Positions 27,553 to 45,616 of a DNA stretch of 64,000 bases are shown in pieces (the stretch's first letter is position 1; every line of letters starts with the position of its first letter). Under the pieces are notes generated by a model. That model saw only the letters and a list, made by a program, of their open reading frames with translations. It was not told the origin of the DNA and did no database searches. The translations under genes were made by a program, and so were the position numbers. This DNA comes from Candidatus Latescibacterota bacterium (GTDB lineage: Bacteria > Latescibacterota > UBA2968 > UBA8231). Location: assembly GCA_965223905.1 (NCBI GenBank), contig CBDCXV010000011.1, positions 1,408,001 to 1,472,000 of the forward strand. The letters run 5' to 3'.

Positions 27553-29364
27553 ATGAAGATTCGATTGGCGTTGCTCGCGCTCGCGATTTCCCTCTGGTCC
27601 TGTGGAGACGATGACGACGCTCCACTGGCCGCTCCGGAAGAAACGGTTCTGCGCCCGAGTGGGGAACTGATGCCCTGGGATCTTTCCGCGGTCGTGCCGA
27701 TCGACTCGGTCCGCGCCATTCCCCCGGGCACTCCCCTGTACATGCGCACCGAGTTCGCCAACGGCGAGCTTGCCGACCTCGAGATGACCTTCGTCCAGGT
27801 GGTCGACGATTTCCTGCAGCCCATGCCGGTCATCATGGTGGAATCCTCCGATCCGGTGCTGATCCAGCTCGGTGGCATCGCCCAGGGCATGAGCGGCTCC
27901 CCCGTCTTTTCCGAGCAGGGCACCATGGGGGCCATCGCCTACGGTTTCACTGCCCAGGACAACCCGCCGTTCTACTTCTTCGCCACGCCCATAGAATGGG
28001 TGATCGGCTCGCAGGGAACGGTGCCCGCGGCCAAACCCGCGGCCACGTGGGACGGGGCCCGCATCACCCCCCTGGAGATCCCCCTGGTGAGCACGGGACT
28101 CCACGGTCCGCCGCCGGCGGGAGGGGGTTCGTTTCCCCTGGGTGAGGCGGTTTCCGCCGGTCTGACCCAGGAACGCCAGGAGAGCTTCGAAGCCGGAAGG
28201 CCCCTGGCGGTCGGTCTGCTGCTCGGTGAAATGACCGGAGGCGGGATCGGAACCATTTCGTACGTCGACGGCAACCGGATATACGGGTTTGGGCATCCCA
28301 TGTTTGGAGTCGGCCCGGTTGAGCTTCCCATAATCGAGGCAAAGGTGCTCGGTGAAATTTCCAATCTCTCGGCTCCCTTCAAGTTCGCGACCCTGAACCC
28401 GACGGTGCGGGGTACCATAACCGAAGACCGATTGCCCGCGATTCGCGGCGTGCTCGACGAGGAGCCTGAGCTGGTACCGATCAGCAGCATGTACACCTTT
28501 CCATCCGGGAGCGAGCTCGAGCTCACGCACAGGATGCCCACCGTCGGTCTCGACCCGTATACCACGCTCAGTCTCCTCACGAATGCTTCTTTCGGTCCCT
28601 TGTACAACCGGATCGAAAACGACCCGGACCACAGTGTCCGCGTTACGACGAATATCTCCTTCGCCGGCACCGACTCAGTGCTTGCCCGCACCCGCCTGTA
28701 CGCCGAGCCGGATGGACGGCTTACCTCCTTGATCGGCGCTGCCTCCGGCGATTTGTCATTCGCACTCTCCGAGCTGATGACGAGGAACGATTACGCCCTG
28801 CAGGTGGCCGAGGCCGAGGTCCACGTCGAGATGATACCGGAACCTCGCTTCGCCAAGGTGGTGGAGGTCACCGCGGACACCGTGGCCGGTCTCGGGAGCA
28901 CGCTGACCATTTCCACTTCGCTGCGCGTGGGCCGGCGCCTCGACCGGGAAGTCGGGCTGGAGCTCGCCATACCGGATACGATTCCCCCCGGTTTCTACCG
29001 GCTCGAGGTCGCTTCCGCGGCCAACCTGGTGGATGACGAGGGAGGGGATTTCGGGTTCTTCGGACCGCCGGGATTCGGTTTCGGAGACGAGGGAAAGCTC
29101 GAGGATGTTTTCGTGCGTCTGAACGAACCGGACGAAAACATCGTCCTGAAGGCCCGCCTGACATTTTCCGCGCCGCCCCCTCCCCCGGAAATACCCGAGG
29201 GGGAGGCTCCCAGCGATGTTCCCGACACTGGACTGGGCGACATCCCGTTCTTCGGAGATTTCTTTCCTCCCGACGGCTCCCTGCCGACTGTTTCCACGGA
29301 GGAAGATGTGGGGCTGTATATCGAAGGCACACAGAGCATCGAGATCCAATTGACGGTGGAGTGA
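27553..29364 (+). CDS. Lipoprotein with SpoIVB-like peptidase S55 domains
   Basis: AAGGAG RBS; lipobox LWSC; GGIAQGMSGSPV, GAIAYGF, GIGTISYVDG..IYGFGHPM, GTITEDR. Confidence 0.8.
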   Translation: MKIRLALLALAISLWSCGDDDDAPLAAPEETVLRPSGELMPWDLSAVVPIDSVRAIPPGTPLYMRTEFANGELADLEMTFVQVVDDFLQPMPVIMVESSDPVLIQLGGIAQGMSGSPVFSEQGTMGAIAYGFTAQDNPPFYFFATPIEWVIGSQGTVPAAKPAATWDGARITPLEIPLVSTGLHGPPPAGGGSFPLGEAVSAGLTQERQESFEAGRPLAVGLLLGEMTGGGIGTISYVDGNRIYGFGHPMFGVGPVELPIIEAKVLGEISNLSAPFKFATLNPTVRGTITEDRLPAIRGVLDEEPELVPISSMYTFPSGSELELTHRMPTVGLDPYTTLSLLTNASFGPLYNRIENDPDHSVRVTTNISFAGTDSVLARTRLYAEPDGRLTSLIGAASGDLSFALSELMTRNDYALQVAEAEVHVEMIPEPRFAKVVEVTADTVAGLGSTLTISTSLRVGRRLDREVGLELAIPDTIPPGFYRLEVASAANLVDDEGGDFGFFGPPGFGFGDEGKLEDVFVRLNEPDENIVLKARLTFSAPPPPPEIPEGEAPSDVPDTGLGDIPFFGDFFPPDGSLPTVSTEEDVGLYIEGTQSIEIQLTVE

Positions 29365-29564
29365 CCGCCGGAGGCACCGGGGGCGGGCGGGAAGGTTGCC
29401 AATACCTCCCGCCTGGCTCCGGGCCGTCGGCCGGCAGTTCCGGGTTGGGGAAGGATTCGAAGAGGCCCGGCGCAAATCACCGGTTTCCGGGTATCAAAGA
29501 CCCGCTTCGCGGCAGGTTCCTCACCGCCTGCCACGCTGGCTACCCTCAAGCCATCCCTGCCGAA

Positions 29565-32500
29565 CTACTGCGGCCCCGCATCCCCGAACCGGGTGCGGAT
29601 GTATTCCCTGGTGTCGTCGGGTGAGAGCTTCACGGTTCCCGGGCCGCTGCGCACGAAGAAATCGCCCCCCTCCTCCTTCTCCACCCCCTTCCACCTGAGG
29701 AACACCGGTTCCGGGCTGCGCTGGCAGCTCACCGCGCAGACCCCCTTGCCGCCGACGATCTGAATCCCCGGATCGATGCAGGTTCCGGCGCGGTCGCCGA
29801 GGCCGTTGCGCACCACCTGTGCGAGATGGCGCATGAACTTGTCGTCGTTTTCGAGCCGGTCGCGTTCGATCCCGACGACGGCCCCGTCGTCGGCCACGCC
29901 GAGCAGGAGATCCCCACCCTCGGTATTGAGGAATGCGGCGATGGTCTTGAGCGCGGCGTGGGTCACCCGTTGGTCGTCCTTGCCGTCCTCCACCAGGTTC
30001 CAGCGCAGCGTGGACTTGAACTCCAGGGTCTTCGACTCACCCCTCTGGATCAGCTCCTCGGCGCTGCGGTGGCTGTGGAGGTACTGGTCGAAGAGGAGAT
30101 CCCTGATCACCTCTCCAAAGGCCCGGTCGTCGGTGATCCGCTTGTAGAGATCGAAATTGGAATCGACGATCTCCTGGATCACCTGACTGACCTTGTGGTC
30201 GAAGGTAAGCCGCACGTTGTCGCGCGTGTTCACTCTCGCCGCGGCGTCGAGGGCGGGGTCCCCTTCGAGCTTCTCCATCATCTGGCCGAGAGTGACGCGG
30301 TGCTCGGGCCCGAGCGCGAGCCCGAAGCGCTCGTTCAGCTCGGCGATGATGCGCGAAAGCGTCTCCATCTCTTCGGGCACGTGTCCGTGCGCTTCCTTCG
30401 TGCCGATGGGGTCGAGCACCCCTGCCTTGCGCTCGAGACCGATCTTGCCGCTGGCCGTCTCCTGAATCCGGTAGGACTCCATGTCGATGTTCTGCTGCAC
30501 CTCGAGGGGCAGCTCGGCCCGCTCCGGGCGCAACAGGCGAAGCAGGTGCCTGGCGAAGACGTACAGCTTCTCCAGGTCGGAATCCGAGAAAGGCAGCACC
30601 TGGGACAGAAACGCGTAGAGCCCCACGAAGTCGGTGAGCTGCCCCCGGAAATCCTGCCGCTCTTCCTCGTGCAGCTCTTTGAAGCGCTCGACGACCGGAT
30701 TCAGCAGCGGCTGCAGCTGGTCCTGCGCAGCGGTGTCATTGAAATAGAGTCTGGCGAAGCCGTCGACGTCGGCCGGAGCAAAGACCGGGAAAGCGGTCAG
30801 ACGCGTCTGGATTTCGTAGAGCAGGTTGGGATCGGTCTCTTCCGACAGCAGGGTGGTCTCGTAAGTAGGGCTCGAAGGCGGCCTTGATCCCGTCGGCCTC
30901 GTTGGCGAAGTCGAGCACCAGGGTCCCCTGCTTTCCCGCCTTTGTGCGGTTGAGCCGCGACAGGGTCTGCACCGCGTTCACGCCGCCGAGCTTCTTGTCG
31001 ACGTACATCGTGTGCAGCAACGGCTGGTCGAACCCGGTCTGGAACTTGTTGGCGACGATCAGAAAGCGGTAGTCCGGCCCTTCGAAGGTCCTGGCGGTCT
31101 GCGCCTCGGAGACCTTGTTCATGCCCGGCTCGGTGTAGGTTTCGCCCCCATCGTTTCGCCCCCATCCTTGACGGAACCGGAGAAGGCAACCAGCGCCTTG
31201 AACGGATTCCCCAGCTCCCCGAGATGCCGGTCCACCGCCAGCTTGTAGCGCACCGCGTGCAGGCGCGAGCGGGTGACGATCATCGCCTTGGCCCTGCCGC
31301 CGATCTGGTTCTGCACCTGCCCGGTGAAGTGCTCGATCAGGATGCGCACCTTCTCGCCGATGGCGTGCGGGTGCAGGTCGACATAGGACTTTAGCAGATG
31401 GGCGGCTTTCTGCTTGTCGTAGCGCGGATCCTCCTCGACCGTCTTCCACAGCCGCCAGTAGGCCTTGCAGGTGGTGTAGCTCTCCAGGACGTCGAGGATG
31501 AACCCCTCCTCGATGGCCTGGCGCATGCTGTAGAGGTGGAACGGCGCGAACGAGCCGCCGGCGCGCTTGGTTCCGAACAGCTCCAGCGTCTTGGGCTTGG
31601 GCGTCGCCGTGAAGGCGAAGGTCGACAGATTGGGCAGCCGCCCGCGCTTCTCCATCTCGGACAGGATCGCGTTCTCGAGCTCCTCTTCGGGGGTCTCCGC
31701 CCCGGATTCCTCGCTCTCCGCCTCTTCGAGCGAAGCCGGAGCCAGCACCGACTTCAGGCTCTTGGTGCTCTCCCCCGACTGCGACGAGTGCGCCTCGTCG
31801 ACGATCAGCGCGAACCGCTTGCCCGGCAGCTCGTCGATCTGTCCGGCGATCACCGGAAACTTCTGCAGCGTGGTGACGATGATGGTCTTGCCCGCCTCGA
31901 GCGCATCCCTGAGCTGGCGCGAGGTGGTGTCGATGTTCTCCACCACCCCCAGGGTCTGCTCGAACTGGCGCATGGTGCTCTGCAGCGCGCGGTCGAGCAC
32001 GCGGCGGTCGGTGATGACCACGATCGAGTCGAAGACGCGGCGGTCGTCAGCGTCGTGCAGGGTCGAGAGCTGGTGGGCGAGCCAGGCGATGGTATAGCTC
32101 TTGCCGCTCCCGGCCGAGTGCTGGATGAGGTACTGCTGCCCCACCCCGTTCTCGCGGGCGTCGGCGACGAGCCGGCGCACGCAGTCGAGCTGCTGATAGC
32201 GCGGGAAGATCAGCGACTTCCCGCCGGTCTTGCGGCCGGTCTCGTCCTCCTCCTCGACTTCATGGATGAACTGGCGCACCAGGTCGAGCACGCTGTCGCG
32301 CGCCCAGGTCTCTTCCCAGAGATAGGAGGTGGCGTACCCGGTCTGCGTCGGCGGAACCGGCGGGTTGCCGGCGCCGCCGAACTTGCCCCGGTTGAAGGGC
32401 AGGAAGCGAGTCCCGGCACCATCGAGATGGGTGGTGACGTAGACCAGGTCCGCATCCACGGCGAAGTGCCCCAGGCAGCGGCCATAGGCCAGCAGCGGCT

Positions 32501-33111
32501 CGCGGGGATCGCGGTCGGTCCGGTACTGGCGGATCGCGTCCTCGACGGTCTGGCCGCTGAGCGGGTTCTTGAGCTCGGCGGTGAACAGGGGGATGCCGTT
32601 CAGGAAACAGCACCAGGTCGAGGCTCTTCTCGTTCTTGACGCTGTAGCGGACCTGTCGGGCAACGGCGAAAAAGTTCGCCGCGTGCAGCCGCCGCGTCTC
32701 CTCGTTGAGCCCGCTGGCCGGGGCGAAATAGGCGAGCCGGAAGCTGCAGCCCATGTCCTTCACCCCGGACCGCAGCACGTCGAGGGCGCCGCGTCTCGCG
32801 ATCTCCGACGATAACCGCTTGAGAAACCGCTCCTGCACCTGGACCCCGTAGTGTTCGGACAGCCTTTGCCACTGCTTCGGCTGCGTAGCCAGCAGGAAGT
32901 CCACGACGTCGCGGGGCAACAGGCACAAGGTTCGGTCGTAGTCCTGGGGCAGGCGCTGGTGATAGCCCCCGGGCTGCATCCCCCGGGCGCCCAGGGAAGG
33001 CCTGGGTTCGCCCGCCAGGGCCTCGCCGCCGGGAAGCTCCTCCTCGATCAGGCGCAGCAAGGCCGCCTCGATGGCGTCCTCGAAGGCTCGTTCCGAGATC
33101 TCGGGATTCAC
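29565..33111 (-). pseudogene. hsdR: Type I restriction subunit HsdR fused to a C-terminal Schlafen/AlbA_2 domain; three frameshifts
   Basis: LFLNGIPLFTAELKN, QHSAGSGKS, IVDEAHSSQ, FTATPK, ANKFQTGFDQP, VQTLSRLNR; C-terminal GESKTLEFKSTLRWN...KTIAAFLNTEGGDLLLGVADDGAVVGIE. Shifts near 32605 (+1), 31139-31166 (14-bp duplication) and 30865 (+1). Confidence 0.9.
31139..31166. repeat. Perfect 14-bp tandem duplication inside hsdR
   Basis: GTTTCGCCCCCATC twice (31139-31152, 31153-31166); removing one copy restores VKDGGETYTEPGMN. Confidence 0.92.
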
Positions 33112-34277
33112 ATGCCACCTCCCCGGGTTGTCGCGGCTTCAGGGTCCCGTCTCGGGGTGGACGGGGCATCCAGCACCTCGAGCACTGCACGCGCGCAATA
33201 CACCCGGTTGCGCCTCGCCTCCCCGACCAGGGTGACGATGCCTGCCGCTTCCAGCCGGTCGACGGCGCGCCGGGCCGTGGTGTAGGCGACCTCCAGATTC
33301 TGGGCAAGGCCGCGCACGGACCAGAAGGGGTTCTGGACAAACAGCTCCAGCACCTTCTCCGATTGCCCCGAATGAACCCCGTCGATTTTCTCCAACCAGC
33401 CCTGAAACAGGTCGTCGATGCGTTGGATCCGGCCGACCGCGTCCCCTGCCTGGAGTTCTACCCCGCGCAGGAAGTACGTCAGCCACGCCTCCCACTCCCC
33501 GCTCTCCGCCACCCCTTGCAGGCGGGCGTAGTACTCCTCGCGCGTAGCTTCAAAGTAAGCGCTCAGGTAGAGAAGGGGTTCCGGCAGGAGGCCGCGGGCG
33601 ACGAACAACAGCGAGATGAGCAGACGGCCAACGCGCCCATTGCCGTCGATAAACGGATGGATGGCCTCAAACTGCGAGTGTATGAGTGCGGCGTGCACCA
33701 GGGGGGGCAGGGTTTCGTCGTGGAGGAACTGCTCCCACTTCCCCAGGCAGGCCATCAACTCGACGGGCGGAGGGGGCACGTACCTGGCGTCCTCGAGGCC
33801 GTTTCCGGGCGGACCGATCCAGTTCTGGGTGCGTCGAAACTCACCCAGGGTAGCCGTGTCGCCCCGGACCCCCCGCATCAGACGCTCGTGCAGCTCCCGC
33901 ACCAGACGGAGAGACAGCGGCAACGTGTTCAGGCGCCTTATCCCGTACTGCAGCGCCAGGACGTAGTTGGCGACCTCGTGCAGATCCGCTGCATTCCGTT
34001 CGACCCCTGCCCCAGCCTGCGCTGCAAGCAGTTCGCCCAGGGTGGCCTGCGTGCCTTCGATGCGGCTGGAAAGCACCGCTTCCCGGTGGAGGAAGGCCCG
34101 GATGAACAGGTGCGGATTCGATACAAGCCTGCCTTCTCCTGCGAGCCGGCCTACTGCCTGGGCGGCGCGGGAGAGCGCGGAAACCAGCTCCGCGTTCCAA
34201 GCAATAGGAGGCGGAAGGGGAGCCGGAACGAAGGCGCGGTACCCGCCGGGGCAAGGGAAGTACCGGTGTTTTTCCAG
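33108..34277 (-). CDS. Fic family protein (Fic_N + Fic + C-terminal HTH)
   Basis: HPFIDGNGRVGR Fic motif; EAVLSSRIEGTQ; frame stays open upstream of the listed GTG (34076) through YRAFVPAPLPP to a possible CTG start at 34277; stop overlaps the hsdR start. Confidence 0.88.
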   Translation of the reverse strand: MEKHRYFPCPGGYRAFVPAPLPPPIAWNAELVSALSRAAQAVGRLAGEGRLVSNPHLFIRAFLHREAVLSSRIEGTQATLGELLAAQAGAGVERNAADLHEVANYVLALQYGIRRLNTLPLSLRLVRELHERLMRGVRGDTATLGEFRRTQNWIGPPGNGLEDARYVPPPPVELMACLGKWEQFLHDETLPPLVHAALIHSQFEAIHPFIDGNGRVGRLLISLLFVARGLLPEPLLYLSAYFEATREEYYARLQGVAESGEWEAWLTYFLRGVELQAGDAVGRIQRIDDLFQGWLEKIDGVHSGQSEKVLELFVQNPFWSVRGLAQNLEVAYTTARRAVDRLEAAGIVTLVGEARRNRVYCARAVLEVLDAPSTPRRDPEAATTRGGGM

Positions 34278-34442
34278 CTGACCCGGAGAAGGAGGAGTGA
34301 CCTCACTTCACGGTACTGTATCAGTCTGAAAATTTCACCCGCCCCGGAAAGCCGATTCCATCACCCAGGTTTCCTGGCTAAAGGGTGTGCTGGTTCGGCC
34401 CCAATAGTCGCTCTTGGTGGGAGGTTGATCCACCCCATCCGC

Positions 34443-34460
34443 GTTATACATTTGTATAAC
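34443..34460 (+). promoter_or_regulatory. Palindromic operator upstream of the cryptic relBE-like pair
   Basis: GTTATACA-TT-TGTATAAC perfect inverted repeat just upstream of the AAGGAGG RBS (34471-34477). Confidence 0.65.
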
Positions 34461-34485
34461 ATCCCACGCCAAGGAGGTAGCAATC

Positions 34486-34611
34486 ATGTCCGCAGCCAAT
34501 GGCATCCCTCGGGAGAAGGACGAAACAATCGAGTTGCAAAAAATACTCGACGATCCTTCCACGGAGTGGGTGTCCTGGAAGGAAGCAGAAGATGAGCTAC
34601 GAGCTCGATAA
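34486..34611 (+). CDS. Small acidic putative antitoxin (41 aa), absent from the ORF track
   Basis: AAGGAGG RBS; MSAANGIPREKDETIELQKILDDPSTEWVSWKEAEDELRAR; the VSWxE C-terminus is typical of RelE/ParE partner antitoxins; overlaps the toxin start. Confidence 0.6.
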   Translation: MSAANGIPREKDETIELQKILDDPSTEWVSWKEAEDELRAR

Positions 34612-34842
34612 ACAGGAAAGCCTTGAAAAGGCTGAAGCAAATCCCCCAGCCCACGAGAGGGCGCATTGAGGAGGCCATCAGGGCCATTGAGAAAAATCCT
34701 TGTGCTGGGGAAGCCCTACGAGGGAATTTTCTTGGATTTCGAAAGATCAGGATTGGCCAGTTCGGGTTCTCTACAAGTGAATGAATCTGAGAAGCTGATC
34801 CGAATTGTGAAAATAGAACCGCGAGGCTCGTCCTACCGATAG
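34592..34842 (+). pseudogene. RelE/ParE-family toxin, frameshifted
   Basis: Joining frames gives MSYEL.INRKALKRLKQIPQPTRGRIEEAIRAIEKNPCAGEALRGNFLGFRKIRIGQ.RVLY.VNESEKLIRIVKIEPRGSSYR, a RelE pattern; about three small indels. Confidence 0.75.
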
Positions 34843-34899
34843 TCGTCTTCTTCGCTCACCGCCTTGGGTAAAATTTTTTCCCCAAGTACATCTCCTCTG

Positions 34900-34936
34900 A
34901 ACCCGGCTCTTTTCGAGAGATCGGGTTTATTTTTTT
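34900..34936 (+). terminator. Rho-independent terminator after the relE-like gene
   Basis: Imperfect hairpin AACCCGGCTCT-TTTCG-AGAGATCGGGTT followed by a T-rich run. Confidence 0.6.
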
Positions 34937-35124
34937 CCAGTTCGTCACATTATCCAAATCAAATCACTGACACATATGCTTGCCATTTATCGTTCTGAAT
35001 TCGTAGATGTTATCTGAACAAGATTGCAGATATTCGGTTGGAAAACGGAGGAGAGTTTGTAACATTTTGTTACGAACTATAACTATTTGGAAAACTTCTT
35101 CGTAACGGCCGGATTGAACGTGAC

Positions 35125-36519
35125 TTATGCGGCAGCCTGCCGCACGTCGATCTTGCCGGTCACCGCTGCGGAGATGAGGGCGGTGCGGAGTTCCTTGAGG
35201 CGGTCGATGGCCTCGCGGACTTTGGCGACAAGGGCGTCGATCTTGGCCGTTTCACGATCAAGGTACGAGACGATGGCCTGTTGCTCTGTCGGCGGTGGCG
35301 CAAGAAGGGGACTTGTAGAAAGCGTATCACTATTGACTTTTGGGATCGCAGAACGCAAGGACTCATCAACCATGAGCTTAACGAAAGCTTCAGACAGCAT
35401 GAAATATTGGAGGAATTTTGTGGAGATTTGGGCATCTGTGACTGTTATGGGGTACATGTCCGCACTACAAAGCCAAGCACCCTCCGCAATGCACACTTTG
35501 TTAAGTGCCGGACGAATTTTTGAATAAACGATCTGACCTAGATCAACATGGTATTTTCCGCTTATCGCCCCTTGGTGTTCCGCGGTTTCCCGAAGTAGAA
35601 TCATTCCTGTATCTGATTGAATGTGATTGGGTGCGATCAATGTTCGCTCGCAATAAGGAATTGTGGTCGGATCAACAAGGCCTTCTGCAATCTTGCAACA
35701 ATTTCGCCAACGCTTCACCTCCCAATGCGCCGGGATCTCCCCCAGCCACTCAACACCGGAGTCCTTCATCGGCACGTCGGAGTCGAAGCCCTTGGTAACC
35801 GCCTGGTTGATGAGGGCAGTGCGCTTTTCCTCGAGCAGCTCGATCAACCGCTCCTTCTTTGCCACGAGGGCGTCGATCCTGGAGGTCTCGCGATCGAGAA
35901 AAGCAGCGATGGCGCGTTGTTCAGGGAGGGAAGGAATAGGTAAGAGAGCTGAGGTGTATTCGTCGACTCTCAGATTAGGATATGTTGATCCCGCAACCAT
36001 ACGTTTGACACGCTCGCGGGTGAGGTCGCTACTAAGTAGCAGAAAAAGGTAGCGAGGATTCGCAACTTGGACGTGTGCTATAACCCTTAATAAAAAATTG
36101 CTGAAGACGAACTCTGGCGTATTGCCATCCACTATGCCTGTTTTGCCGGAGATCACATTGGAGATCGAACCACTCGACTTTACAACAAGGATATCGCCTG
36201 GTCGACATCGAAATCGGTCGGCATCTTTGTGTGAGAATCCTCGCAGTGGCATGTCATCGACGGCGAAGTGTCCCTCCGTATCAATTTGTGCTGTCGTCGC
36301 CACTGCTAATACCCAATCACTGCTCTCAGGTTCTTCTCCGTAGCTGCCGCTGTTGTCTATCCTTGCAATACGCTTCAGCGGTAACTCGACCCAATGCGCC
36401 GGAATCTCCCTCAGCCACTCAATGCCAGATTCCTTGTAGGCCGGATAGGGCCTGTATCGCTCCGCACCCAAAGTGGACGTAATACCGCTATCCCCAATTG
36501 CAGCAGATCGCTTAGTCAT
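35125..36519 (-). CDS. hsdS: Type I RM specificity subunit HsdS
   Basis: Duplicated conserved blocks (K[E/D]SG[I/V]EWL.EIPAHW; EQ.AI..[F/Y]LDRET..IDALVAK...RTALI..AVT) flanking two TRDs. Confidence 0.95.
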   Translation of the reverse strand: MTKRSAAIGDSGITSTLGAERYRPYPAYKESGIEWLREIPAHWVELPLKRIARIDNSGSYGEEPESSDWVLAVATTAQIDTEGHFAVDDMPLRGFSHKDADRFRCRPGDILVVKSSGSISNVISGKTGIVDGNTPEFVFSNFLLRVIAHVQVANPRYLFLLLSSDLTRERVKRMVAGSTYPNLRVDEYTSALLPIPSLPEQRAIAAFLDRETSRIDALVAKKERLIELLEEKRTALINQAVTKGFDSDVPMKDSGVEWLGEIPAHWEVKRWRNCCKIAEGLVDPTTIPYCERTLIAPNHIQSDTGMILLRETAEHQGAISGKYHVDLGQIVYSKIRPALNKVCIAEGAWLCSADMYPITVTDAQISTKFLQYFMLSEAFVKLMVDESLRSAIPKVNSDTLSTSPLLAPPPTEQQAIVSYLDRETAKIDALVAKVREAIDRLKELRTALISAAVTGKIDVRQAAA

Positions 36520-36550
36520 CTATTCCGACCCCTTTGAACTTTGGCAGCGT

Positions 36551-37483
36551 TCATCGTCCAGCTTCATGACACCACGGCCCACCCGCCGGCCAGGTTCCAG
36601 TGAACCCGGACCGGAGCGCCATCGCATCCCACGGTTCTCTGAGAAATGACAGTAGGCGCTCGGCCACGATACCAAAATCCGGTGGCGCTCCAAGAAGCTC
36701 GTTCCTGTCCAGGTAATTACGCCAGTGCTCCGCCCGCTCGGCATCCTCATAGAACCGAGGCGTCAGAGCGACTGGCAGATTCTGAGAGATCGTGGTACGG
36801 CGTTTTTCGAAGGTTGCGCCCATGGCCCGTAGGAGATTTTCGCCATCGAAGGAAGAGTACTGTGCAAGCGCTTGAAGATCGTAAAAATCCTTGTAGCGGC
36901 TGTTCCGTTCACCGAGCACAACCATCGCGTGGAGCTTCTCGGCCACGACGGCTTCGGCTGGGTAAACACGGATTTGCGGATGTGGAGCGTCGAGCAGTGT
37001 TGGGTAATCGGCGTCAATCGGCGGCGGCTGGATGGCATTCCCAAAGCCGATATCGATCCTCATCCGTATTCGTGCGCCGGAGATCCTGGCCCAGAAGAGC
37101 GCTCGGAAGCCGTTATACTCTTGATGTTCGCGGAAGGGTTCGACCCCGATGTCTCCGCTGTCGAAAACAACTCCATCGTCGGCGGCCGGGGTCTCGAAAA
37201 TGTCGCGGATGGTGGAGCGCACCTCGTTTGCCAGGGGGCTTCCGTGGCCGGTAAAATCGAGATCCCGCGTCGGGCGATAGACTGCTTCGCCCCAAAGGAC
37301 AAGGAGCATCGCACCCTTCAAGACGTAGCGCTCCCGATGCTGCGATTCTCCGAGGCGGTAGCGAAATCGCTCCGCGGCATAGCGCTGCAGCAGGAACTGG
37401 AAGTCCTCTCCGGTTTCGCGGCTCCGGTTCATCAACCTTGCGCGAACCGATGCTCCCATGTTTCGGCGTTTCCCGCGTGTCAT
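36551..37483 (-). CDS. abiEii: Type IV TA toxin AbiEii/AbiGii nucleotidyltransferase
   Basis: ASVRARL, YVLKGAMLL, RPTRDLDF, IDIGFG, VVAEKLHAM, NSRYKDFYDL. Confidence 0.92.
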   Translation of the reverse strand: MTRGKRRNMGASVRARLMNRSRETGEDFQFLLQRYAAERFRYRLGESQHRERYVLKGAMLLVLWGEAVYRPTRDLDFTGHGSPLANEVRSTIRDIFETPAADDGVVFDSGDIGVEPFREHQEYNGFRALFWARISGARIRMRIDIGFGNAIQPPPIDADYPTLLDAPHPQIRVYPAEAVVAEKLHAMVVLGERNSRYKDFYDLQALAQYSSFDGENLLRAMGATFEKRRTTISQNLPVALTPRFYEDAERAEHWRNYLDRNELLGAPPDFGIVAERLLSFLREPWDAMALRSGFTGTWPAGGPWCHEAGR

Positions 37484-38085
37484 AGCGAGAGTGCTTCCAG
37501 GTAAGCCCGAATAACGGTCTGCGCACGGCAGACTTCGGCGGCGCGCACGATCTCATCCACGGTCGCAGCCCGCGATCGCAGGGCGTCGTGCAGTGCCTCG
37601 AGCGCGATGTCGAGTCCGAGCTTGTTGCGATAGCGAAAACAGTCCACCACGGTGCGGGCCGGCGAAGTGATGCGAAACGGCACCCTCTGCGCCGAATGGG
37701 AGGCAACGCCGTAGGTGAGCATCGCACCGGAGAAACGGACGATGCGCACGCGGGAGGGAGGATGCGCGGGCTTGCGGGCCTTGCGGTCGAGGGCGATCCA
37801 GACCTCGTGCGGCGACTGCGTGCCGATTTCGTGGAAGCGAAGCGCCGTCAGCAGGCAGATGACGGCATTCGGGATGGCCGCGGCTACCATCGCGATCGTC
37901 TCGACCTCCGTGGGTTCGACTTCGGATAGTCGGTAGAGGCCGTTTCCCAGGTTCTCGACGAGTCCCTTGGAGACCAGACCCTGAAGCCTGCGGTGAGAAA
38001 GCCCGAGCGGCGCGAGATCCCGAGGCCGGAAGTAGGTTCCGATGCCGGCTTCCTGGAGCTCAGCAGTGTCCAGTGCATTCGCCAT
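37480..38085 (-). CDS. abiEi: Type IV TA antitoxin AbiEi (wHTH + C-terminal domain)
   Basis: GNGLYRL, AVICLLTALRFHEIGTQSPHEVWIAL, ITSPARTVVDCFRYRNKLGLDIALEAL; stop overlaps the abiEii start. Confidence 0.92.
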   Translation of the reverse strand: MANALDTAELQEAGIGTYFRPRDLAPLGLSHRRLQGLVSKGLVENLGNGLYRLSEVEPTEVETIAMVAAAIPNAVICLLTALRFHEIGTQSPHEVWIALDRKARKPAHPPSRVRIVRFSGAMLTYGVASHSAQRVPFRITSPARTVVDCFRYRNKLGLDIALEALHDALRSRAATVDEIVRAAEVCRAQTVIRAYLEALSL

Positions 38086-38093
38086 ACCCACAG

Positions 38094-38134
38094 ATGATAC
38101 TGAATGTCGGCACTTAATCGCAACTGCCGACATT
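38094..38134 (-). promoter_or_regulatory. abiE promoter with inverted-repeat operator; probable leaderless transcript
   Basis: AATGTCGGCA-N12-TGCCGACATT (38103-38134); minus-strand TTGCGA-N18-TATCAT ends 8 nt before the abiEi ATG. Confidence 0.65.
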
Positions 38135-38168
38135 TAATATCAGCCAGCCGGTCCGGCGGACGCGCCCT

Positions 38169-38765
38169 TCAAAACCCCCTCAATCGGTTCAGGAGATCCT
38201 TGCCATGCGGACATGCGGCTTCGACGAGTGTTGGATCGATTCGCGCCAGCAATCCGAATGAAGTCTTGCCCTTGGAATACGGGTTTGGGCATCGGGCGGT
38301 GGCCCTGTCCAGCGCGTCGAGAACCGTCTCCCTAGACAGGTCTTCCAACTTGGGCCATTGCCTGAGCGCGTTCTCTATAAACAGCGGACCGAAATAGCTT
38401 CGCAGTGCATCATGGTCCGCCAGAAACCAGGTTTCCATGACCTGAACCATCAGGAAGGCCTGATCGTCGCCGGCCCCTGAAGGTCTATTCCAGCCGTCGC
38501 GTTGCTGCAGATGCTGCCAGGCCGAGTGACCCGCTGCGACCGGGTCTTCGCTGTCCACGAGGAGCAGTGGGATGGTACCAGGCTTCTGCCCAGCGGCATC
38601 TGTCGCAAAGCGGTTGAAGGTGTCTTGCCGTGTGCCGCCCCGAACTACTCTCGGCATGCGGCCACGCAGCCCTGCCGCTGTGAAGAAACTGGTCCAGCCC
38701 TCGCGGAATTGCGCGCCAAGCCGCCGATTATCCCCACCCCCCTCGATGTAAAGCACGGCGGTCAC
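38169..38765 (-). CDS. DUF4276-like (RloB/TOPRIM-related) protein
   Basis: GTG overlapping the ATPase stop; LYIEGGGD (TOPRIM Glu), LLLVDSED (DxD-like), FLMVQVMETWFLAD, YSKG, CPH. Confidence 0.8.
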   Translation of the reverse strand: MTAVLYIEGGGDNRRLGAQFREGWTSFFTAAGLRGRMPRVVRGGTRQDTFNRFATDAAGQKPGTIPLLLVDSEDPVAAGHSAWQHLQQRDGWNRPSGAGDDQAFLMVQVMETWFLADHDALRSYFGPLFIENALRQWPKLEDLSRETVLDALDRATARCPNPYSKGKTSFGLLARIDPTLVEAACPHGKDLLNRLRGF

Positions 38766-40006
38766 CAACGATTCCCTCCCAGTTGCCCGGAGCTCCAGAG
38801 ATTGCCGAGGGTGTAATCCTTCAGCCACTTTGCCAGGTCCTCCTTGTCGAGCCGTCGCATTTCGGTCCGCCCCTCGTGCTTTTCGCAGATCACGACACTT
38901 TCCGGGGTGTCGGTCAGCGCATCGACCATGACATCCGAATGCGTCGTCACGATCAGTTGACTGCGCTCGGACGCTGAGCGCAGCAGCTCGACCAACGTCG
39001 GCAACAGGTCCGGGTGCAGGCCCAGTTCCGGCTCTTCGATTACGACAAGGGGCGGGGGCTCGGGGTGCAACAGGATGGCGAGCATGCAGAGGTAGCGAAG
39101 CGTGCCGTCCGACAGGAGGGTGGCCGGGATCGTGCGGCTGTCAGCTTCTTCCAGGTACAGGGCAACGGTACCGCCCGTCACCGGGCAGGCGATGTCGACG
39201 ATTCCGTCAAAAAGCTTCTGCAATGCAGTGACGAGTTGTCGTTTGCTGTCACCCTGGAAATGAGACAACACGAGCGCCAGGTTCGCGCCTCCGTCATCGA
39301 GAAAGTCGGCACGGTCGTGGGCGCTTTGGTTGCTGCGAAACCCGGCGGAAGGACCGAATGACCAGTTCCGGAAGAGGCGAATACGCTCGTATTGCTCTTT
39401 CAGATGCCACAGTACCGGGGCGTCGGGACTGGCAAACCAATGAAGGAATGAGTGTTCAGGTTGAATCTCACCTGCGAGATCGACGGCCCCCGGACGAGGC
39501 CAGGAGGCGATGCGAGGTGTCGACCACTGCCCCGAGCGCATATCCCTCTCGGAGTCGGCACGCTCCGCCTCTGCATTGGATTTTGCGATCTCCGCCGCGG
39601 ATACCTCGTCCTGAGGGGGGCGGTAATAGGACAGCGAGACCGGTTCGTCGGCGTGTTTCTCCGATGGCTCGACCCGCTCGCCCGTCACTTCGGGGCGGCC
39701 GTTTCGATCGGCCAATGTCAGCGAGTGCCGAAGAACGCCGCCGTAGGGATAGCCGATCTCGGTCTCCATCGATATGGAATCCGGCGCCTCCGGGCCCTTC
39801 CACAACCAACCTCGAACGCCGCCCATGCGCGAGATCGGTTCGGTAATGCCACGGGGCGCAGCCTGAAGCAGCGCAATCGCTTCGAGGAAGTTCGACTTTC
39901 CCGAACCGTTCGGGCCGATGAGGACGTTCAGCGGTTCCATGGGCAGGTCGATCCCGTCGGGTCCGAACGACAGAAGGCCGGCGACTTTCAATCTGTGTAT
40001 CAGCAT
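38762..40006 (-). CDS. ABC-type AAA_21 ATPase (defence-associated)
   Basis: NVLIGPNGSGKSNFLEAI (Walker A), LSDGTLR signature, IEEPELGLHP (Walker B/D-loop), IVTTHS (H-loop). Confidence 0.9.
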   Translation of the reverse strand: MLIHRLKVAGLLSFGPDGIDLPMEPLNVLIGPNGSGKSNFLEAIALLQAAPRGITEPISRMGGVRGWLWKGPEAPDSISMETEIGYPYGGVLRHSLTLADRNGRPEVTGERVEPSEKHADEPVSLSYYRPPQDEVSAAEIAKSNAEAERADSERDMRSGQWSTPRIASWPRPGAVDLAGEIQPEHSFLHWFASPDAPVLWHLKEQYERIRLFRNWSFGPSAGFRSNQSAHDRADFLDDGGANLALVLSHFQGDSKRQLVTALQKLFDGIVDIACPVTGGTVALYLEEADSRTIPATLLSDGTLRYLCMLAILLHPEPPPLVVIEEPELGLHPDLLPTLVELLRSASERSQLIVTTHSDVMVDALTDTPESVVICEKHEGRTEMRRLDKEDLAKWLKDYTLGNLWSSGQLGGNRW

Positions 40007-40036
40007 GTCGATACCTCTTCCACGCAGCGGTCCAAA

Positions 40037-42184
40037 TTATCCCGCCGACACGCCCTTCAGCATCTCCAGGATGTCCTTCTCGATACCCTGAATATCCGCC
40101 TCGATATCCCCGAGAGGCCGCGGCGGCTTGTACTGGTAGAAGTAGCGGTTGAAGTTGATCTCGTAGCCGATCAGGCCAACCATCCCGTCCCTGTGATCCC
40201 GCTTCGATGTGTCGATCCAGGCATCCGGCACATGGGGCTCGACCTCGCGCTCGAAGAAGGCGCGGACGCTGTCCGGCACTCCATCCTCTCCGGTGGGATC
40301 CTTTCCATCTGACAGGGGCACCCGCTCGGTGTCCCGCTGCTCCGGGTCGGGTTCGGGTGCGCCGTCCTTGCCGCGGCAAATCCCCGCGGTTTCGTCCCGC
40401 TCTGAAAGGGCATCGAGTATCGCTGTCTTGAGCGGAGCCGGGAGCTTCAGGCCGGCTTTCGAGGCCGCTTTCGCAAGCTCCGCAAGGAACGCCTCCCGGT
40501 CCTTGTGAAGGGTGCCGGGCAGGGTCTCGAGCATGGCCAGAACGGCTTCCTGCAGGGCGCGGCCTGCCTCCTCCTCCCTGACGCCGGCGTCCCCGCGCTT
40601 CTTCGATCTGGCAAGGTTCTGAAACCCCTTCTGGTCGCCCAGCCGGGCGATCCATTCCGGGTTCGCCTGGAAATTGAGCCGCAGCGGCCGTTCCACGGTG
40701 ATCTTCCGGTACCCGAACCGGGACGTCGAGAAGACGCGGCTGACGACGGTCTCTTCCTCCTCTCCGTCCTTTGAGGGCTTGCGGGTCTCGCCGTCACGCA
40801 AACCGGCGAGGAGTTCGAGCACATCGGCTGCCTTATCCGGTGGTATCTGGCGCCGCTTGTCCCCGAGGCTCCGCCGCATCGGCGCCCAGAACCCCGTGGC
40901 GTCGATGAGCTGCACCTTTCCCCTGCGGGCCCCCGCCTTGCGGTTGCTCAGCAGCCACACATAGGTGGCGATGCCGGTGTTGTAGAAGAGCTGCTCCGGC
41001 AGCGCGATCAGGGCCTCCAGCAGGTCGTTCTCGAGGATGTAGCGGCGGATCTCGCTCTCGCCGCTGGCGGCGTCTCCGGTGAACAGGGGCGAGCCGTTCA
41101 TGATGATGGCGATGCGGGTGCCCCCCTCGTCCGCTGCTCTGGCATGGGCGAGCATGTGCAGCAGGAACAGGGTCTGGCCGTCGCTGATGCGCGGCAGACC
41201 GGGGCCGAAGCGGCCGGACGCCCCGCGCTCGTGCTCGGCTTCGACCGCGGCCTTGTCCCGCTTCCAGTCCTTGCCGTAGGGCGGATTGGCGATCAGGTAG
41301 TCGAAAGACTGGCCGGCATGGCGGTCGTTGGAGAGGGTGCTTCCGAAAGCGACGTTTTCCGCGTCGCGGCCCGACGGGTCCTTCATGAAGATGTCGGACT
41401 TGGAGACCGCCCAGGTCTCCGGGTTCACTTCCTGGCCGAAGAGATGGATCTCCGCCTGCGCATTGATGGCGGGACGAACCAGTTGGCCGTTGCTGCTCAT
41501 GCCCCCGGTGATGTGCTCCTTGGCGATCATCAGCATGCCGCCCGAACCGCAGCAGGGGTCGTAGACCGAGCGCACCACCCCGGTGCCGGCGATCTCCTTT
41601 TCGTCACCGGAAAGCATGAGGTCCACCATCAGATGGACGACGTCGCGGGGCGTGAAGTGCTCGCCGGGGTTTTCGTCCAGGGCCTCGTTGAAACAGCGGA
41701 TCAGCTCCTCGAAGATCGTCCCCATGCCCGGGTTGTCGATCGCGTCCGGATGCAGATCGACGCTCCCGAACCGTTCCAGCACCTGGAACAGCAGTCCCGC
41801 CTCGTCGAGCTTGCTGATGGTGTTGTCGAAGTCGAACCGCTCCAGCACCTCGCGCATGTTTGGGCTGAAGCCGGCGATGTAGTTCCTGAGGTTGGCGGCG
41901 AGGTTCGGCGCATCGGCGAGCAGCTTGTCGAAGTCGTAGCGGGAGGTGTTGTAGAAACTGAAGCCGGATGTTCGACAGAGCTGGTCATTCAGGTCTTCAA
42001 GGCCCCGCTCCGACAGTTCGGCCTGCCGTTGCAGCACCTTCTCCTTGGTCGGTGCGAGCACGCAGTCGAGGCGGCGCAGCACGGTCAGCGGCAGGATGAC
42101 GTCCTGGTACTTGCCGCGCTTGAAGCTGTCGCGGATCAGGTCCGCGACCCCCCAGAGAAAACTGACTATTCCGCTGTGGTTCAT
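40037..42184 (-). CDS. hsdM: Type I RM methyltransferase HsdM
   Basis: ILPLTVLRRLDC, GEHFTPRDVV, YDPCCGSGGML, ANPPYG, FYNTGIATY, GYEINFNRYFY; intact 715 aa. Confidence 0.96.
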   Translation of the reverse strand: MNHSGIVSFLWGVADLIRDSFKRGKYQDVILPLTVLRRLDCVLAPTKEKVLQRQAELSERGLEDLNDQLCRTSGFSFYNTSRYDFDKLLADAPNLAANLRNYIAGFSPNMREVLERFDFDNTISKLDEAGLLFQVLERFGSVDLHPDAIDNPGMGTIFEELIRCFNEALDENPGEHFTPRDVVHLMVDLMLSGDEKEIAGTGVVRSVYDPCCGSGGMLMIAKEHITGGMSSNGQLVRPAINAQAEIHLFGQEVNPETWAVSKSDIFMKDPSGRDAENVAFGSTLSNDRHAGQSFDYLIANPPYGKDWKRDKAAVEAEHERGASGRFGPGLPRISDGQTLFLLHMLAHARAADEGGTRIAIIMNGSPLFTGDAASGESEIRRYILENDLLEALIALPEQLFYNTGIATYVWLLSNRKAGARRGKVQLIDATGFWAPMRRSLGDKRRQIPPDKAADVLELLAGLRDGETRKPSKDGEEEETVVSRVFSTSRFGYRKITVERPLRLNFQANPEWIARLGDQKGFQNLARSKKRGDAGVREEEAGRALQEAVLAMLETLPGTLHKDREAFLAELAKAASKAGLKLPAPLKTAILDALSERDETAGICRGKDGAPEPDPEQRDTERVPLSDGKDPTGEDGVPDSVRAFFEREVEPHVPDAWIDTSKRDHRDGMVGLIGYEINFNRYFYQYKPPRPLGDIEADIQGIEKDILEMLKGVSAG

Positions 42185-42317
42185 CGGCTTACATGGAGGA
42201 TGTCGTGTTTACGCATCGCTTCGATTCCTGCACTCGCCTCTGCCTGTCCGGGAAGCCTCCCGAGACAGCGAATCCGGATGCGGGGTTCGCGGCCCCGGCC
42301 CGGGGTAGCCGCAACGG

Positions 42318-43376
42318 CTATCCGTCGAGCCGTACCTCGCGCCCGCTTCGCGCCGACTCGTACACGGAATCCTGGATCAGCTGCAGGTTGCGGATCTCGC
42401 GCGGGGTTTGCGACGGTTCGGTCCCCTCGCGGATGGCGGTGGCGAAGCGGTGGATCTCCCGGAACACGCTCTCCCCCCAGGAATGGCGCTGCCCCGGCTC
42501 GGCGTAGTCGGTGGGAGTGCGGTCGACGATCTCCCCTCCCTCGTCCATCAGGACCGACAGCGGGTTGAAGCGGACGGTGCCGCGCTCGCAGATCATCTCG
42601 AAGCTGTAGTGGGCGTCGAGCCGGTCGTGGGCCCAGGTGCCCTCGAGGACGAGGGTGGCGCCGGTATCGAGGCGGATGTGGGCCGCGGCGATGTCCTCCA
42701 CGTCGTACCGGTCGCGCGCCTCCGCGTCCGGCGCGGTCTCGGCCCGTTTGTGCGGGAACAGCCGGTGGGTCGAGCCGGACACCGAGACCAGGCCGGGGCT
42801 TCCGGCGACCCAGAGGGCCACGTCGGCGATATGGATCGCCGTCGAGGCCAGGGCTCCGCCGGCGGCGATCTCGCTGATGTAATGCGGGCCCCACCAGGGA
42901 ATGGAGGGGTAGTAGGTCCAGGCGCGGATGTAGGTGGGTTGGCCGAGCTTCCCCGACTCCACCAGCTCCCTGAGCATGCCGGCTTCCAGCATGTGCCGCA
43001 TGTTGGTGCCGACCTGGATCATGCGCCCGCCCTGTTCCGCGGCCGCCAGCATCCGGTCCGCCTCGGCGACGTTCATGGCGAACGGCTTCTCGCACAGCAC
43101 GTGGGCCCCGGCCTCCAGCGCCGCGACCGCGATCTCGCAGTGCGTCTGGGGCATGGTGGCGACGCTGACGAGGTCGAGGTCACCCGGCTCGAGCAGCTCG
43201 CGGAAATCTCCGGCGGTGCGCGCCCCCGGAAAGCGCTTCCCCGCGGCGGCGAGCGCCTCTTCTTTGATGTCGCACAGCGCCGCGACTTCGACGGTCTCCG
43301 GCATGCGGCCGTAGGCCTCGAAATGGCCCTTCCCCATGGCGCCAAGGCCGACCACTCCCACCCGCAGCTTTTCCAT
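42318..43376 (-). CDS. Gfo/Idh/MocA family oxidoreductase
   Basis: LRVGVVGLGAMG, HVLCEKPFA, GGALASTAIH, VEDIAAA. Confidence 0.9.
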   Translation of the reverse strand: MEKLRVGVVGLGAMGKGHFEAYGRMPETVEVAALCDIKEEALAAAGKRFPGARTAGDFRELLEPGDLDLVSVATMPQTHCEIAVAALEAGAHVLCEKPFAMNVAEADRMLAAAEQGGRMIQVGTNMRHMLEAGMLRELVESGKLGQPTYIRAWTYYPSIPWWGPHYISEIAAGGALASTAIHIADVALWVAGSPGLVSVSGSTHRLFPHKRAETAPDAEARDRYDVEDIAAAHIRLDTGATLVLEGTWAHDRLDAHYSFEMICERGTVRFNPLSVLMDEGGEIVDRTPTDYAEPGQRHSWGESVFREIHRFATAIREGTEPSQTPREIRNLQLIQDSVYESARSGREVRLDG

Positions 43377-43395
43377 CCCGGCTCCTTTCTCTCCG

Positions 43396-43872
43396 TTACG
43401 CCTTCTTCTTCGCGGCGGCTTTCTTCTTTGCCTTCGCCTTCTTCGCTTTGGCCTTCGGCTTCTTCGCTGCCGGCTTGGCAACCGACTGCAGGAACTTCAC
43501 CACCTCCGCGGCCTCCTTGCCCCCCTTCCGGGCATGGGTCATCAGCGCGATCCCGTGCGGCCCCTTCTCGTTGACGACCGCGGGGTTGTCGGCCACCACC
43601 GCCTGCACGATATCGAGCTTGCCCAGCATGGCCGCGGCGAACAGGTCGATGCGAGCCCCGTTTTCCAGCAGATACTCGGCGATGTCCCGGCGGCCCATGT
43701 GCGCCGCGGCTCCCAGCCCGGTCTCCCAGTCGCCGCCTCCCCAGTCCCAGGAGGAGTTGACGAGCGCCGGCTCCTGCGAGATCAGCTCCTTCACGCTGTC
43801 GAAGTCGCCGTGGGCGTCGTTGACGAACTGTTTCACCAGCTCCGGGGAGATGGCGGCTTTCTTCGGTGACAT
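43396..43872 (-). CDS. Ankyrin-repeat protein with Lys/Ala-rich C-terminal tail
   Basis: AHGDFDSVKELI, DWETGLGAAAHMGRRDIAEYLLENGA, FAAAMLG, GPHGIALMTHA; tail AKPAAKKPKAKAKKAKAKKKAAAKKKA. Confidence 0.85.
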   Translation of the reverse strand: MSPKKAAISPELVKQFVNDAHGDFDSVKELISQEPALVNSSWDWGGGDWETGLGAAAHMGRRDIAEYLLENGARIDLFAAAMLGKLDIVQAVVADNPAVVNEKGPHGIALMTHARKGGKEAAEVVKFLQSVAKPAAKKPKAKAKKAKAKKKAAAKKKA

Positions 43873-44001
43873 GGTCTTCTTCCTGTGGTGGGGTTGGCGG
43901 GGTTGGCGGCCTTTGACTCGCAGCGGCCGTTTCGGGCCGCCGAATCCGTTCGGGACGGGTCCTGGGTCCTGCCGGCCTTGCAGGTGGATCCTTCGACCGT
44001 A

Positions 44002-45428: not shown

Positions 45429-45616
45429 ATTGGAAAAAATATACTTTGGCTGTTGTCAGCTCTCCCCGGCCCGTGTTGAAGCTCGCTTTACGGGGGAGTC
45501 CCGGCAAGCGGCGCCGGGTGTCCTGTCCTGAAAAAACCGACGGCTGAAATCCTGGCGCCAAGGGGCCAGGGTCACAAGGCCGCGGCGCCGGCCCTCGGAA
45601 GTACCGAAAACCCCTC

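Follow-up and report, generated by a model that had tools for sequence, protein, structure and literature searches.

Can a type I restriction enzyme carry, within the polypeptide of its R subunit, a second nuclease directed at RNA? The question is raised by a gene on the minus strand (33111..29565) of the 64,000-nucleotide stretch of a Candidatus Latescibacterota genome analysed here (contig CBDCXV010000011.1, positions 1,408,001 to 1,472,000; referred to throughout as the window). When three reading frames are combined, this gene encodes a type I restriction R subunit (HsdR) followed by a Schlafen tail. The initial annotation of the window had described it as an HsdR that continues, after its normal C terminus, into an AlbA_2/Schlafen domain with the E-x4-E-x-K residues retained, and had put it forward as a candidate for an undescribed system with a built-in tRNA nuclease. 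The best explanation of the whole, which we judge somewhat better than an even bet, is an HsdR that carries a prokaryotic Schlafen tRNase tail as a second effector and belongs to a mobile cassette, the copy in the window being a pseudogene.

Outside the tail, Pfam profiles for HSDR_N (2.7e-8), SWI2_SNF2 (2.4e-25), ResIII, DEAD and T1R_D3-like (1.3e-11) matched within 29565-33111. The gene starts with a GTG at 33111, overlapping the end of the preceding fic gene, and its N-terminal region, up to ...KSLDLVLF and including the Asp of the PD-(D/E)xK motif, lies at 32606..33111 (minus), where tblastn aligned amino acids 1 to ~200 of the intact homologues P0001, P0003 and P0005 in frame −2. The next piece, at 31153..32604 (minus; Pfam and tblastn), holds the ExK of the nuclease motif and lobe 1 of a superfamily 2 (SF2) motor (GSGKS, DEAH), then further regions. 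It is followed at 30865..31138 (minus) by some 97 codons of lobe 2 of the helicase (QTGFDQPLLHTMYVDK...), which can be read in another frame only and to which the T1R_D3-like match of 1.3e-11 and residues 632-728 of P0003 (98% identity, frame −2) are assigned. The helical C-terminal region occupies 30081..30863 (minus; translation and tblastn) and ends in ...FDLYKRITDDRAFGEVIRDLLFDQYL, and the 171-residue Schlafen/AlbA_2 tail occupies 29568..30080 (minus). All residues of the PD-(D/E)xK motif are thus encoded in the window, with D-LVLFLNGIPLFTAELK kept in 109 full-length homologues, as are the Walker A, DEAH and lobe 2 elements of an SF2 translocase, the last of these in a shifted frame.

Classical HsdR proteins of the EcoKI/EcoR124I type consist of an HSDR_N nuclease motif, an SF2 motor and a helical C-terminal region, and are encoded in an operon with hsdM and hsdS. 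The present protein departs from that family (TIGR00348) in its additional 171-residue Schlafen tail, in a score below the family cut-off and, for the window copy, in its broken frame. The score of the intact homologue P0001 on the TIGR00348 hsdR model, 198.7 bits against a cut-off of 284.55, speaks against a straightforward HsdR assignment; the same protein matches REase_I of PADLOC at 1.1e-35. Judged by these profiles, the window hsdR is a member of a divergent HsdR subfamily.

The tail itself was matched by PF04326 (SLFN_AlbA_2) at residues 314-451 of the open frame window:29565-30977 (minus), corresponding to 30038..29625, with E=2.8e-16 and a score of 60.5 bits against a cut-off of 25.3, and with 117 of the 118 profile positions (1-117) covered. 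A score above the Pfam gathering threshold places the domain among the prokaryotic Schlafens (pSlfn). At 30015..30038 (minus) the translation reads ESKTLEFK, intact in the window and in agreement with the Ex4(E/D)xK catalytic signature of Schlafen RNases, a motif that the main text of Perez Taboada et al. (PMC13056530) calls essential for Schlafen tRNA cleavage. The peptides that had been quoted at first reading (FDQYL..., ESKTLEFK, GGDLLLGVADDG and FFVRSG) were all found in the window translation. Scanned by itself, the tail matched none of the PADLOC families and none of the NCBIfam families.

AlphaFold2 modelled the 171-residue tail, together with 94 diverse relatives, with a predicted local distance difference test (pLDDT) score of 94.3 and a predicted template modelling (pTM) score of 0.90. 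A Foldseek search of the PDB with this model gave 31 matches at E<=0.001, without exception to AlbA_2 or Schlafen proteins. AlbA_2 proteins came first, with DIP2311 (3lmm), the SAMD9 tRNase domain (9o0d, TMq 0.63) and SAMD9 with DNA (7ksp), ahead of SLFN13, SLFN14, SLFN11, SLFN12 and SLFN5; a RecG-related N-domain (2kyy) and 5yd0 were matched as well, with probabilities of 0.99-1.00 for 3lmm, 9o0d, 7ksp, 2kyy, 5yd0 and SLFN11/12/14/5. The sequence profile of the tail domain also matches the SLFN12/14/13/11/5 chains. The best-scoring characterised matches, the AlbA_2 tRNase domains of SAMD9/SAMD9L (9o0d, 7ksp; TMq 0.60-0.63), differ from the tail in their eukaryotic, multidomain STAND-type context and share only 17-19% sequence identity with it. 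As modelled, the tail adopts the AlbA_2/SLFN C-lobe fold, and it passes every test of sequence and predicted structure for a pSlfn protein, in agreement with the initial annotation. The model of a 432-residue construct of helical region plus tail (mean pLDDT 69.7, pTM 0.39) was too weak to define the packing of the tail on HsdR, and the homodimer prediction for the 171-residue tail (score 0.00) gave no answer on pairing either way.

A domain joined to the end of a frame-broken gene might be a chance read-through, arising from a stop codon lost in this genome alone. The distribution of the fusion makes this vanishingly improbable. Of 7999 candidates scored in a search for longer proteins, 1976 matched, and the best 120 of these, the ones listed, all combine PF04326 with HsdR domains (120/120; 74-96% identity), 112 of them at lengths of at least 1,100 residues. 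The fused form is present in 5 of 41 genomes (its own and those of relatives). With one genome taken per species, 282 loci encode a relative; in every one of the best 80 of the 282, which were analysed, the match ran on through the tail and ended at query residue 464-470 of 470. By their record titles these 80 come from Latescibacterota, Binatia, Acidobacteriota, Gemmatimonadota, Nitrospirota, Methylomirabilota, Thermodesulfobacteriota, Planctomycetota, Spirochaetia and Myxococcota, as well as Alpha-, Beta- and Gammaproteobacteria, Cyanobium and others; the fusion occurs in metagenome-assembled genomes (MAGs) of many phyla at 70-93% identity. Loci titled Pelomicrobium sp. G1 (L048) and Cyanobium sp. 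Morenito 9A2 (L087) are candidates for intact cassettes in cultured carriers. The whole of hsdR was covered in 54 of the 80 loci and is read in a single frame in 49 of those 54, and an HsdR with 46% identity (P0227) has the tail as well. A lost-stop artefact is refuted by these best 120 listed proteins, by the best 80 of the 282 loci and by P0227; on this comparison, the HsdR-Schlafen fusion is real, old and widespread in bacteria.

The tail is also conserved as well as the rest of HsdR: across 109 proteins the mean frequency of the top residue is 0.869 in the tail, compared with 0.85 in the N-terminus, 0.91 in the motor and 0.887 in the helical region. The D..ExK, GSGKS and DEAH motifs are likewise preserved across these full-length homologues, which indicates that the family retains its DNA nuclease and motor. 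Among 112 full-length homologues the Ex4ExK residues reach a conservation of at least 98%, and among 94 diverse relatives E15, E20 and K22 of the tail reach at least 90%; as far as alignment can tell, the Schlafen catalytic signature of the tail is under purifying selection.

Comparison within the genome (7.9 Mb, 11 contigs searched) located the junction. Two more HsdR paralogs are present, and the non-fused one of 1011 residues stops 7 residues past the point where the AlbA_2 part begins, which supports the earlier statement that the tail follows a normal HsdR C terminus. Non-fused paralogs align to the helical C-terminal region and no further, and in the fused protein the last HsdR helix passes into the tail with almost no linker. 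From these alignments, the Schlafen tail is an addition to a complete HsdR.

Other C-terminal extensions were noted among the same proteins. The second paralog, of 1181 residues, bears a C-terminal Peptidase_S24 (LexA-like) domain (E=2.6e-9; G000:C2:402657-403208, L002:949-1500, minus), and P0227 unites HsdR, Schlafen tail and S24 peptidase domain in one protein. Additions at the C terminus of HsdR seem to recur, and the S24 tail suggests control of restriction by self-cleavage.

Beyond HsdR, a phmmer search of 1.84 billion cluster representatives with the tail gave 5991 matches at E<=1e-3, 205 of them at E<=1e-30. The best 150 of the 5991 comprise 25 with an HsdR core, 50 of a family of about 430 residues and 75 that are neither (fragments or other architectures). 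TPR-Slfn, PLD-like-Slfn and SNF2 helicase-Slfn proteins were also found, with the Slfn domain C-terminal. Since its nearest relatives sit C-terminally on other defence-type proteins, the tail behaves as a portable C-terminal module. The nearest relatives outside HsdR (42-52% identity) are those of the ~430-residue family (P0158, P0160, P0168 and about 47 more representatives), which joins an unannotated N-terminal domain of ~265 residues to a C-terminal Slfn domain; the profile of this N-terminal domain matches PDB 2r6i (Atu1473) weakly and an ATP12 chain more weakly still.

The copy in the window is itself damaged. Its 29565-33111 segment is not a single open reading frame (ORF); it is read in alternating frames with three lesions, tblastn with intact homologues returned it in four pieces, and it therefore lacks the uninterrupted frame of a functional hsdR. 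Nucleotide comparison placed the first lesion at 32605..32607 (minus), where one extra base in ctgTTTcctg (~32605) splits the nuclease motif between D..LVLF and LNGIPLFTAELK. The second, at 31139..31166 (minus), is a 14-bp tandem duplication consisting of two copies of gatgggggcgaaac (31166-31153 and 31152-31139), which shifts the frame and is followed by a TGA at ~31119. The third, at 30863..30864 (minus; tblastn and nucleotide comparison), is one extra T (tac-t-tac) that restores the frame of the second piece; lesions 2 and 3 jointly displace the ~97 lobe 2 codons from the frame of their surroundings. Nine neighbouring genes (hsdM, the AAA_21 gene, the DUF4276 gene, abiEi, abiEii, hsdS, fic and the flanking S55 peptidase and EEP nuclease genes; 11,808 nt in total) can each be aligned with relatives over the whole length in a single frame, and by simple arithmetic the chance that three random lesions would all hit the 3,547-nt hsdR is about p = 0.012. 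Because these neighbours are unbroken, the window hsdR is most likely a pseudogene, and on the sequence comparisons we hold a real pseudogene to be probable with good, if incomplete, confidence. The organism would then most likely keep its methylase, specificity subunit and passenger defence genes but be without a working R subunit at this locus.

The alternative, which we consider rather unlikely, attributes the three frame breaks to errors of assembly or consensus and credits the organism with an intact, working hsdR-Slfn gene. A number of observations favour it and weigh against a pseudogene. Two of the three lesions are single bases in short T runs (TT/TTT), and the genome is an 11-contig MAG (completeness 93.6%, contamination 5.1%). 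When contigs of four public runs from four studies were placed on the stretch, contigs without the extra base at 32605 and at 30863 were seen in all four runs. Run X1 matches the stretch best, and two of its contigs, which together account for a depth of 17.6 of 384, are without the extra base at 32605. Related chromosome-scale MAGs show comparable single-base frame changes; one of them, of the same genus and with the same flanking genes (G002), has a GGGG>GGG change near HsdR residue 330 (L014/L015). Related assemblies show single-base frame changes in hsdM as well as hsdR: among the same loci of other named genomes, 5 of 54 full-length hsdR genes and 3 of 35 full-length hsdM genes change frame, and as hsdM is affected about as often as hsdR, assembly error is a live alternative for the two single-nucleotide sites. 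On the other side, a 14-bp tandem duplication is atypical of a consensus error, the nine adjoining genes (11.8 kb) contain zero frame breaks, and X1 contigs with 0-3 differences to the window carry two of the lesions: the extra T at 30863 stands in a contig of 412 nt (record 4, 0 differences), the duplication in one of 222 nt (record 5, 3 differences). X1 is possibly the source sample, so that its support is not independent. Among the X1 contigs listed, no window-identical piece covers 32517-32685, around lesion 1. A 176-nt contig of X2 (record 21, 2 differences otherwise) lacks exactly the 14 duplicated bases. The contigs without lesions may stem from other organisms, given that hsdR is highly conserved (75-90%) across phyla.

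In the two closest relatives, hsdR is damaged at positions other than those of the window: the genes adjoining the broken hsdR of G002 are unbroken, and P0003, with 96% identity in the part that matched, leaves the frame in two stretches peculiar to it. Preferential inactivation of hsdR across the family was considered and is unsupported by the 5/54 and 3/35 counts. Programmed frameshifting or phase variation was ruled out, the sites being TT/TTT and a unique 14-bp duplication, not repeat tracts, and intact homologues reading straight through. In L074 (and L044), hsdR and hsdM both shift frame several times; such error-rich assemblies call for caution in reading single-base frame changes of MAGs of this kind as biology.

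How much of this architecture was already known can be judged from the recent literature on prokaryotic Schlafens, as far as its main texts go. Schlafen nucleases of prokaryotes, RorSlfn5 and EcoSlfn7 being examples, are described there as fused to diverse sensors in 55 architectures, and members of the family as phage-activated tRNases by experiment (PMC13056530), and bacterial Slfn domains generally as tRNases activated by phage or by a signal (PMC13056530; PMC13462974). More than half of defence-associated Schlafen homologues are reported to be linked to restriction-modification (R-M) or other nucleases, some of them fused directly to R-M methyltransferases, and the R-M-linked ones are speculated to sense DNA cleavage products (PMC13462974). 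Prokaryotic Schlafen fusions and their linkage to R-M are, by these 2025-26 accounts, already known, and to call the gene an undescribed system was in that respect an overstatement, as it was in view of the three frame breaks of the window copy. As to the partner, the main text of PMC13056530 lists HisKinase, HTH, DUF5929, Ig-like, DUF262 and TBP-like partners and no HsdR, the text of PMC13462974 does not name an HsdR fusion, and none of the main-text passages covered describes one, though supplementary catalogues may list it. The gene resembles the pSlfn proteins of PMC13056530 in combining PF04326 and Ex4(E/D)xK with a larger fused accessory part in a defence island, and differs in that its partner is a complete type I R subunit with a DNA nuclease and ATP motor of its own and that the Slfn domain is C-terminal. 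Cash (PMC13462974), by comparison, is switched on by cyclic tetra-adenylate (cA4) via a Csx15 sensor, and Csx15 is absent at the HsdR-Schlafen locus.

Two further systems inform the question of activation. The single-lobe SLFN-pAgo system RzAgo has to pair two SLFN_AlbA_2 domains and assemble four to form a tRNA-cutting cleft (10.64898/2026.05.29.728809); the tail is likewise a single-lobe SLFN_AlbA_2 domain lacking the mammalian N-lobe, but whereas a GHKL ATPase and an Argonaute sensor drive RzAgo to assemble, the sole candidates here are the HsdR motor and the R2M2S1 complex. PrrC, as described in PMC1484252, is held latent on the type I enzyme EcoprrI and is released by a phage inhibitor. 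PrrC-EcoprrI and RloC share with the present gene a tRNA-cutting abortive-infection function, here predicted, tied to type I R-M (PMC1484252, PMC2610378, PMC3458546), although PrrC is a separate protein with an ATP-binding cassette (ABC)-ATPase N-domain and an unrelated nuclease, bound non-covalently to the enzyme, and the Schlafen domain lies within the HsdR polypeptide. As classified from its domains, the tail is not a PrrC/RloC member, since it matches PF04326 only and is part of HsdR, not a separate gene.

Taken together, we propose that the gene belongs, as its R subunit, to a type I R-M cassette that moves horizontally (hsdM - HEC-01 - abiE - hsdS - SoFic - hsdR) and in which a complete HsdR (PD-(D/E)xK DNA nuclease, SF2 translocase and helical C-terminal region) is followed by a single-lobe Schlafen/AlbA_2 domain. 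The tail would be a prokaryotic Schlafen nuclease, most likely a tRNase, and would serve as a second effector of the restriction complex that stops translation beside DNA cleavage. Because single-lobe Schlafen domains of bacteria need at least one partner of their kind for activity, it is probably silent on a lone HsdR; by the pairing and assembly requirement of RzAgo, it would become active when HsdR subunits gather or rearrange during restriction. The trigger could be restriction itself, by stalling or collision on unmodified DNA, or perturbation of the complex by anti-restriction proteins, both of which fit equally. Two points tell against an RNA-cutting second effector: we infer the RNase activity of HsdR-Slfn proteins from sequence, fold and analogy, and AlbA_2 domains also bind DNA, the SAMD9 domain with DNA (7ksp) being among the best fold matches.

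The DNA-bound SAMD9 structure also lends itself to a different view of the tail, as a non-catalytic nucleic-acid-binding module that helps HsdR to grip DNA or the complex to assemble and cuts no RNA. The older annotation of homologues as 'putative DNA binding domain-containing' and the near-absence of a linker after the last HsdR helix agree with this, but binding alone would not need the conservation of the acidic residues and lysine of Ex4ExK (at least 98% in the 112 homologues, at least 90% in the wider subfamily), the same SAMD9 domain has been deposited as a tRNase (9o0d), and the bacterial Slfn domains tested elsewhere are RNases according to the main texts of PMC13056530 and PMC13462974; we consider such a module unlikely. 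Where RNA is cut, the means of activation divides the possibilities. In one version, put forward tentatively and with low confidence, the tails of separate HsdR subunits would meet only when translocating complexes stall or converge on unmodified DNA, a single event thus triggering both DNA cleavage and translation shut-off; were this true, the cassette would be a restriction enzyme with built-in abortive infection, and the independent frame breaks in the window, G002 and P0003 would reflect a cost of self-toxicity. The version favoured by the initial annotation, a PrrC-like guard in which the intact restriction complex silences the tail until a phage anti-restriction protein (Ocr, ArdA or Stp-like) perturbs it, has its precedent in PrrC, latent on the type Ic enzyme EcoprrI and activated by a T4 inhibitor of EcoprrI (PMC1484252, PMC2610378), and gains from the covalent attachment of the tail to the very subunit that anti-restriction proteins disable and from a cassette layered with other abortive-infection genes. 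Yet no sequence feature bears on guard logic, the tail has neither a PrrC-type ABC-ATPase nor a PrrC nuclease domain and matches 0 PADLOC and 0 NCBIfam families, and activation by restriction itself fits the data equally well, so that we regard the guard as distinctly improbable.

How Schlafens are switched on is an open question in bacteria and in humans, and the 2026 papers place most bacterial ones beside restriction systems with the trigger not known. By tying the nuclease covalently to a very well-understood motor, the HsdR-Schlafen fusion makes the trigger question experimentally tractable. If the tail does cut tRNA, the type I restriction enzymes of many phyla would wield two weapons, one against DNA and one against RNA, and the fusion would be the single-polypeptide counterpart of the PrrC-EcoprrI pair. 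The family is a good experimental target in itself; the window copy is probably dead.

The genomic setting is that of a type I R-M operon, as had been claimed: hsdM and hsdS lie on the same strand as hsdR, and the same order in relatives marks the gene as a type I R subunit. The operon reads hsdM, HEC-01 (AAA_21 + DUF4276), abiEi/abiEii, hsdS, a SoFic-like fic and hsdR, all on the minus strand. The hsdM gene (40037..42184; 715 residues) matches MTase_I at 1.7e-257 and is followed at 38169..40006 by HEC-01, a candidate system of PADLOC made up of an AAA_21 ATPase (38762-40006) and a DUF4276 gene (38169-38828), with matches to HEC-01A at 9e-132 and HEC-01B at 6.7e-64. Between hsdM and hsdS, at 36551..38133, lie abiEi (37480-38133) and abiEii (36551-37483), identified like hsdS (35125..36519) by Pfam and PADLOC, and between hsdS and hsdR lies fic (33108..34265; SoFic 8.7e-101), homology to relatives beginning at 34265. 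Fusion to an accessory part (here HsdR) and a defence-island setting, with AbiE, SoFic, HEC-01, hsdM and hsdS as neighbours, are as found for pSlfn proteins. Where the sequence upstream of hsdR extends for at least 6.5 kb (41 loci), the upstream genes are HsdS in 38, AbiEi in 36, HsdM in 33, AbiEii in 31, Fic in 24 and HEC-01 in 3; the Schlafen-tailed HsdR family is accompanied across phyla by an AbiE insert between hsdM and hsdS and by Fic ahead of hsdR, the usual order being hsdM-abiEi-abiEii-hsdS-(fic)-hsdR. Across loci HsdS is far less conserved (33-64% identity) than HsdM and HsdR (72-83%), as expected of a mobile cassette that changes its specificity.

No flanking direct repeat of at least 18 nt was found around 28000-47000 to mark the island borders, and the 64-kb window contains no tRNA gene. 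Directly upstream of hsdM, at 42181-44251 (minus), two ORFs of 304 and 392 residues have no Pfam match at E<=0.01, the second region bearing short repeats rich in lysine and alanine (D2). The native start of fic is apparently lost: its frame is open to ~34307 without an ATG, GTG or TTG before the GTG at 34076, and ahead of CPGGYRAF its residues are unlike those of G002 and G012. The gap between hsdS and fic belongs to a segment of lower G+C content (0.53 at 34001-36000, compared with ~0.65-0.69 around it), and 34100-35120, especially 34623-34842 (plus), contains small overlapping ORFs in two frames, one of which weakly matches a ParE-like toxin (E=0.0068, short of the cut-off); this low-G+C segment may be the remnant of a decayed toxin-antitoxin system.

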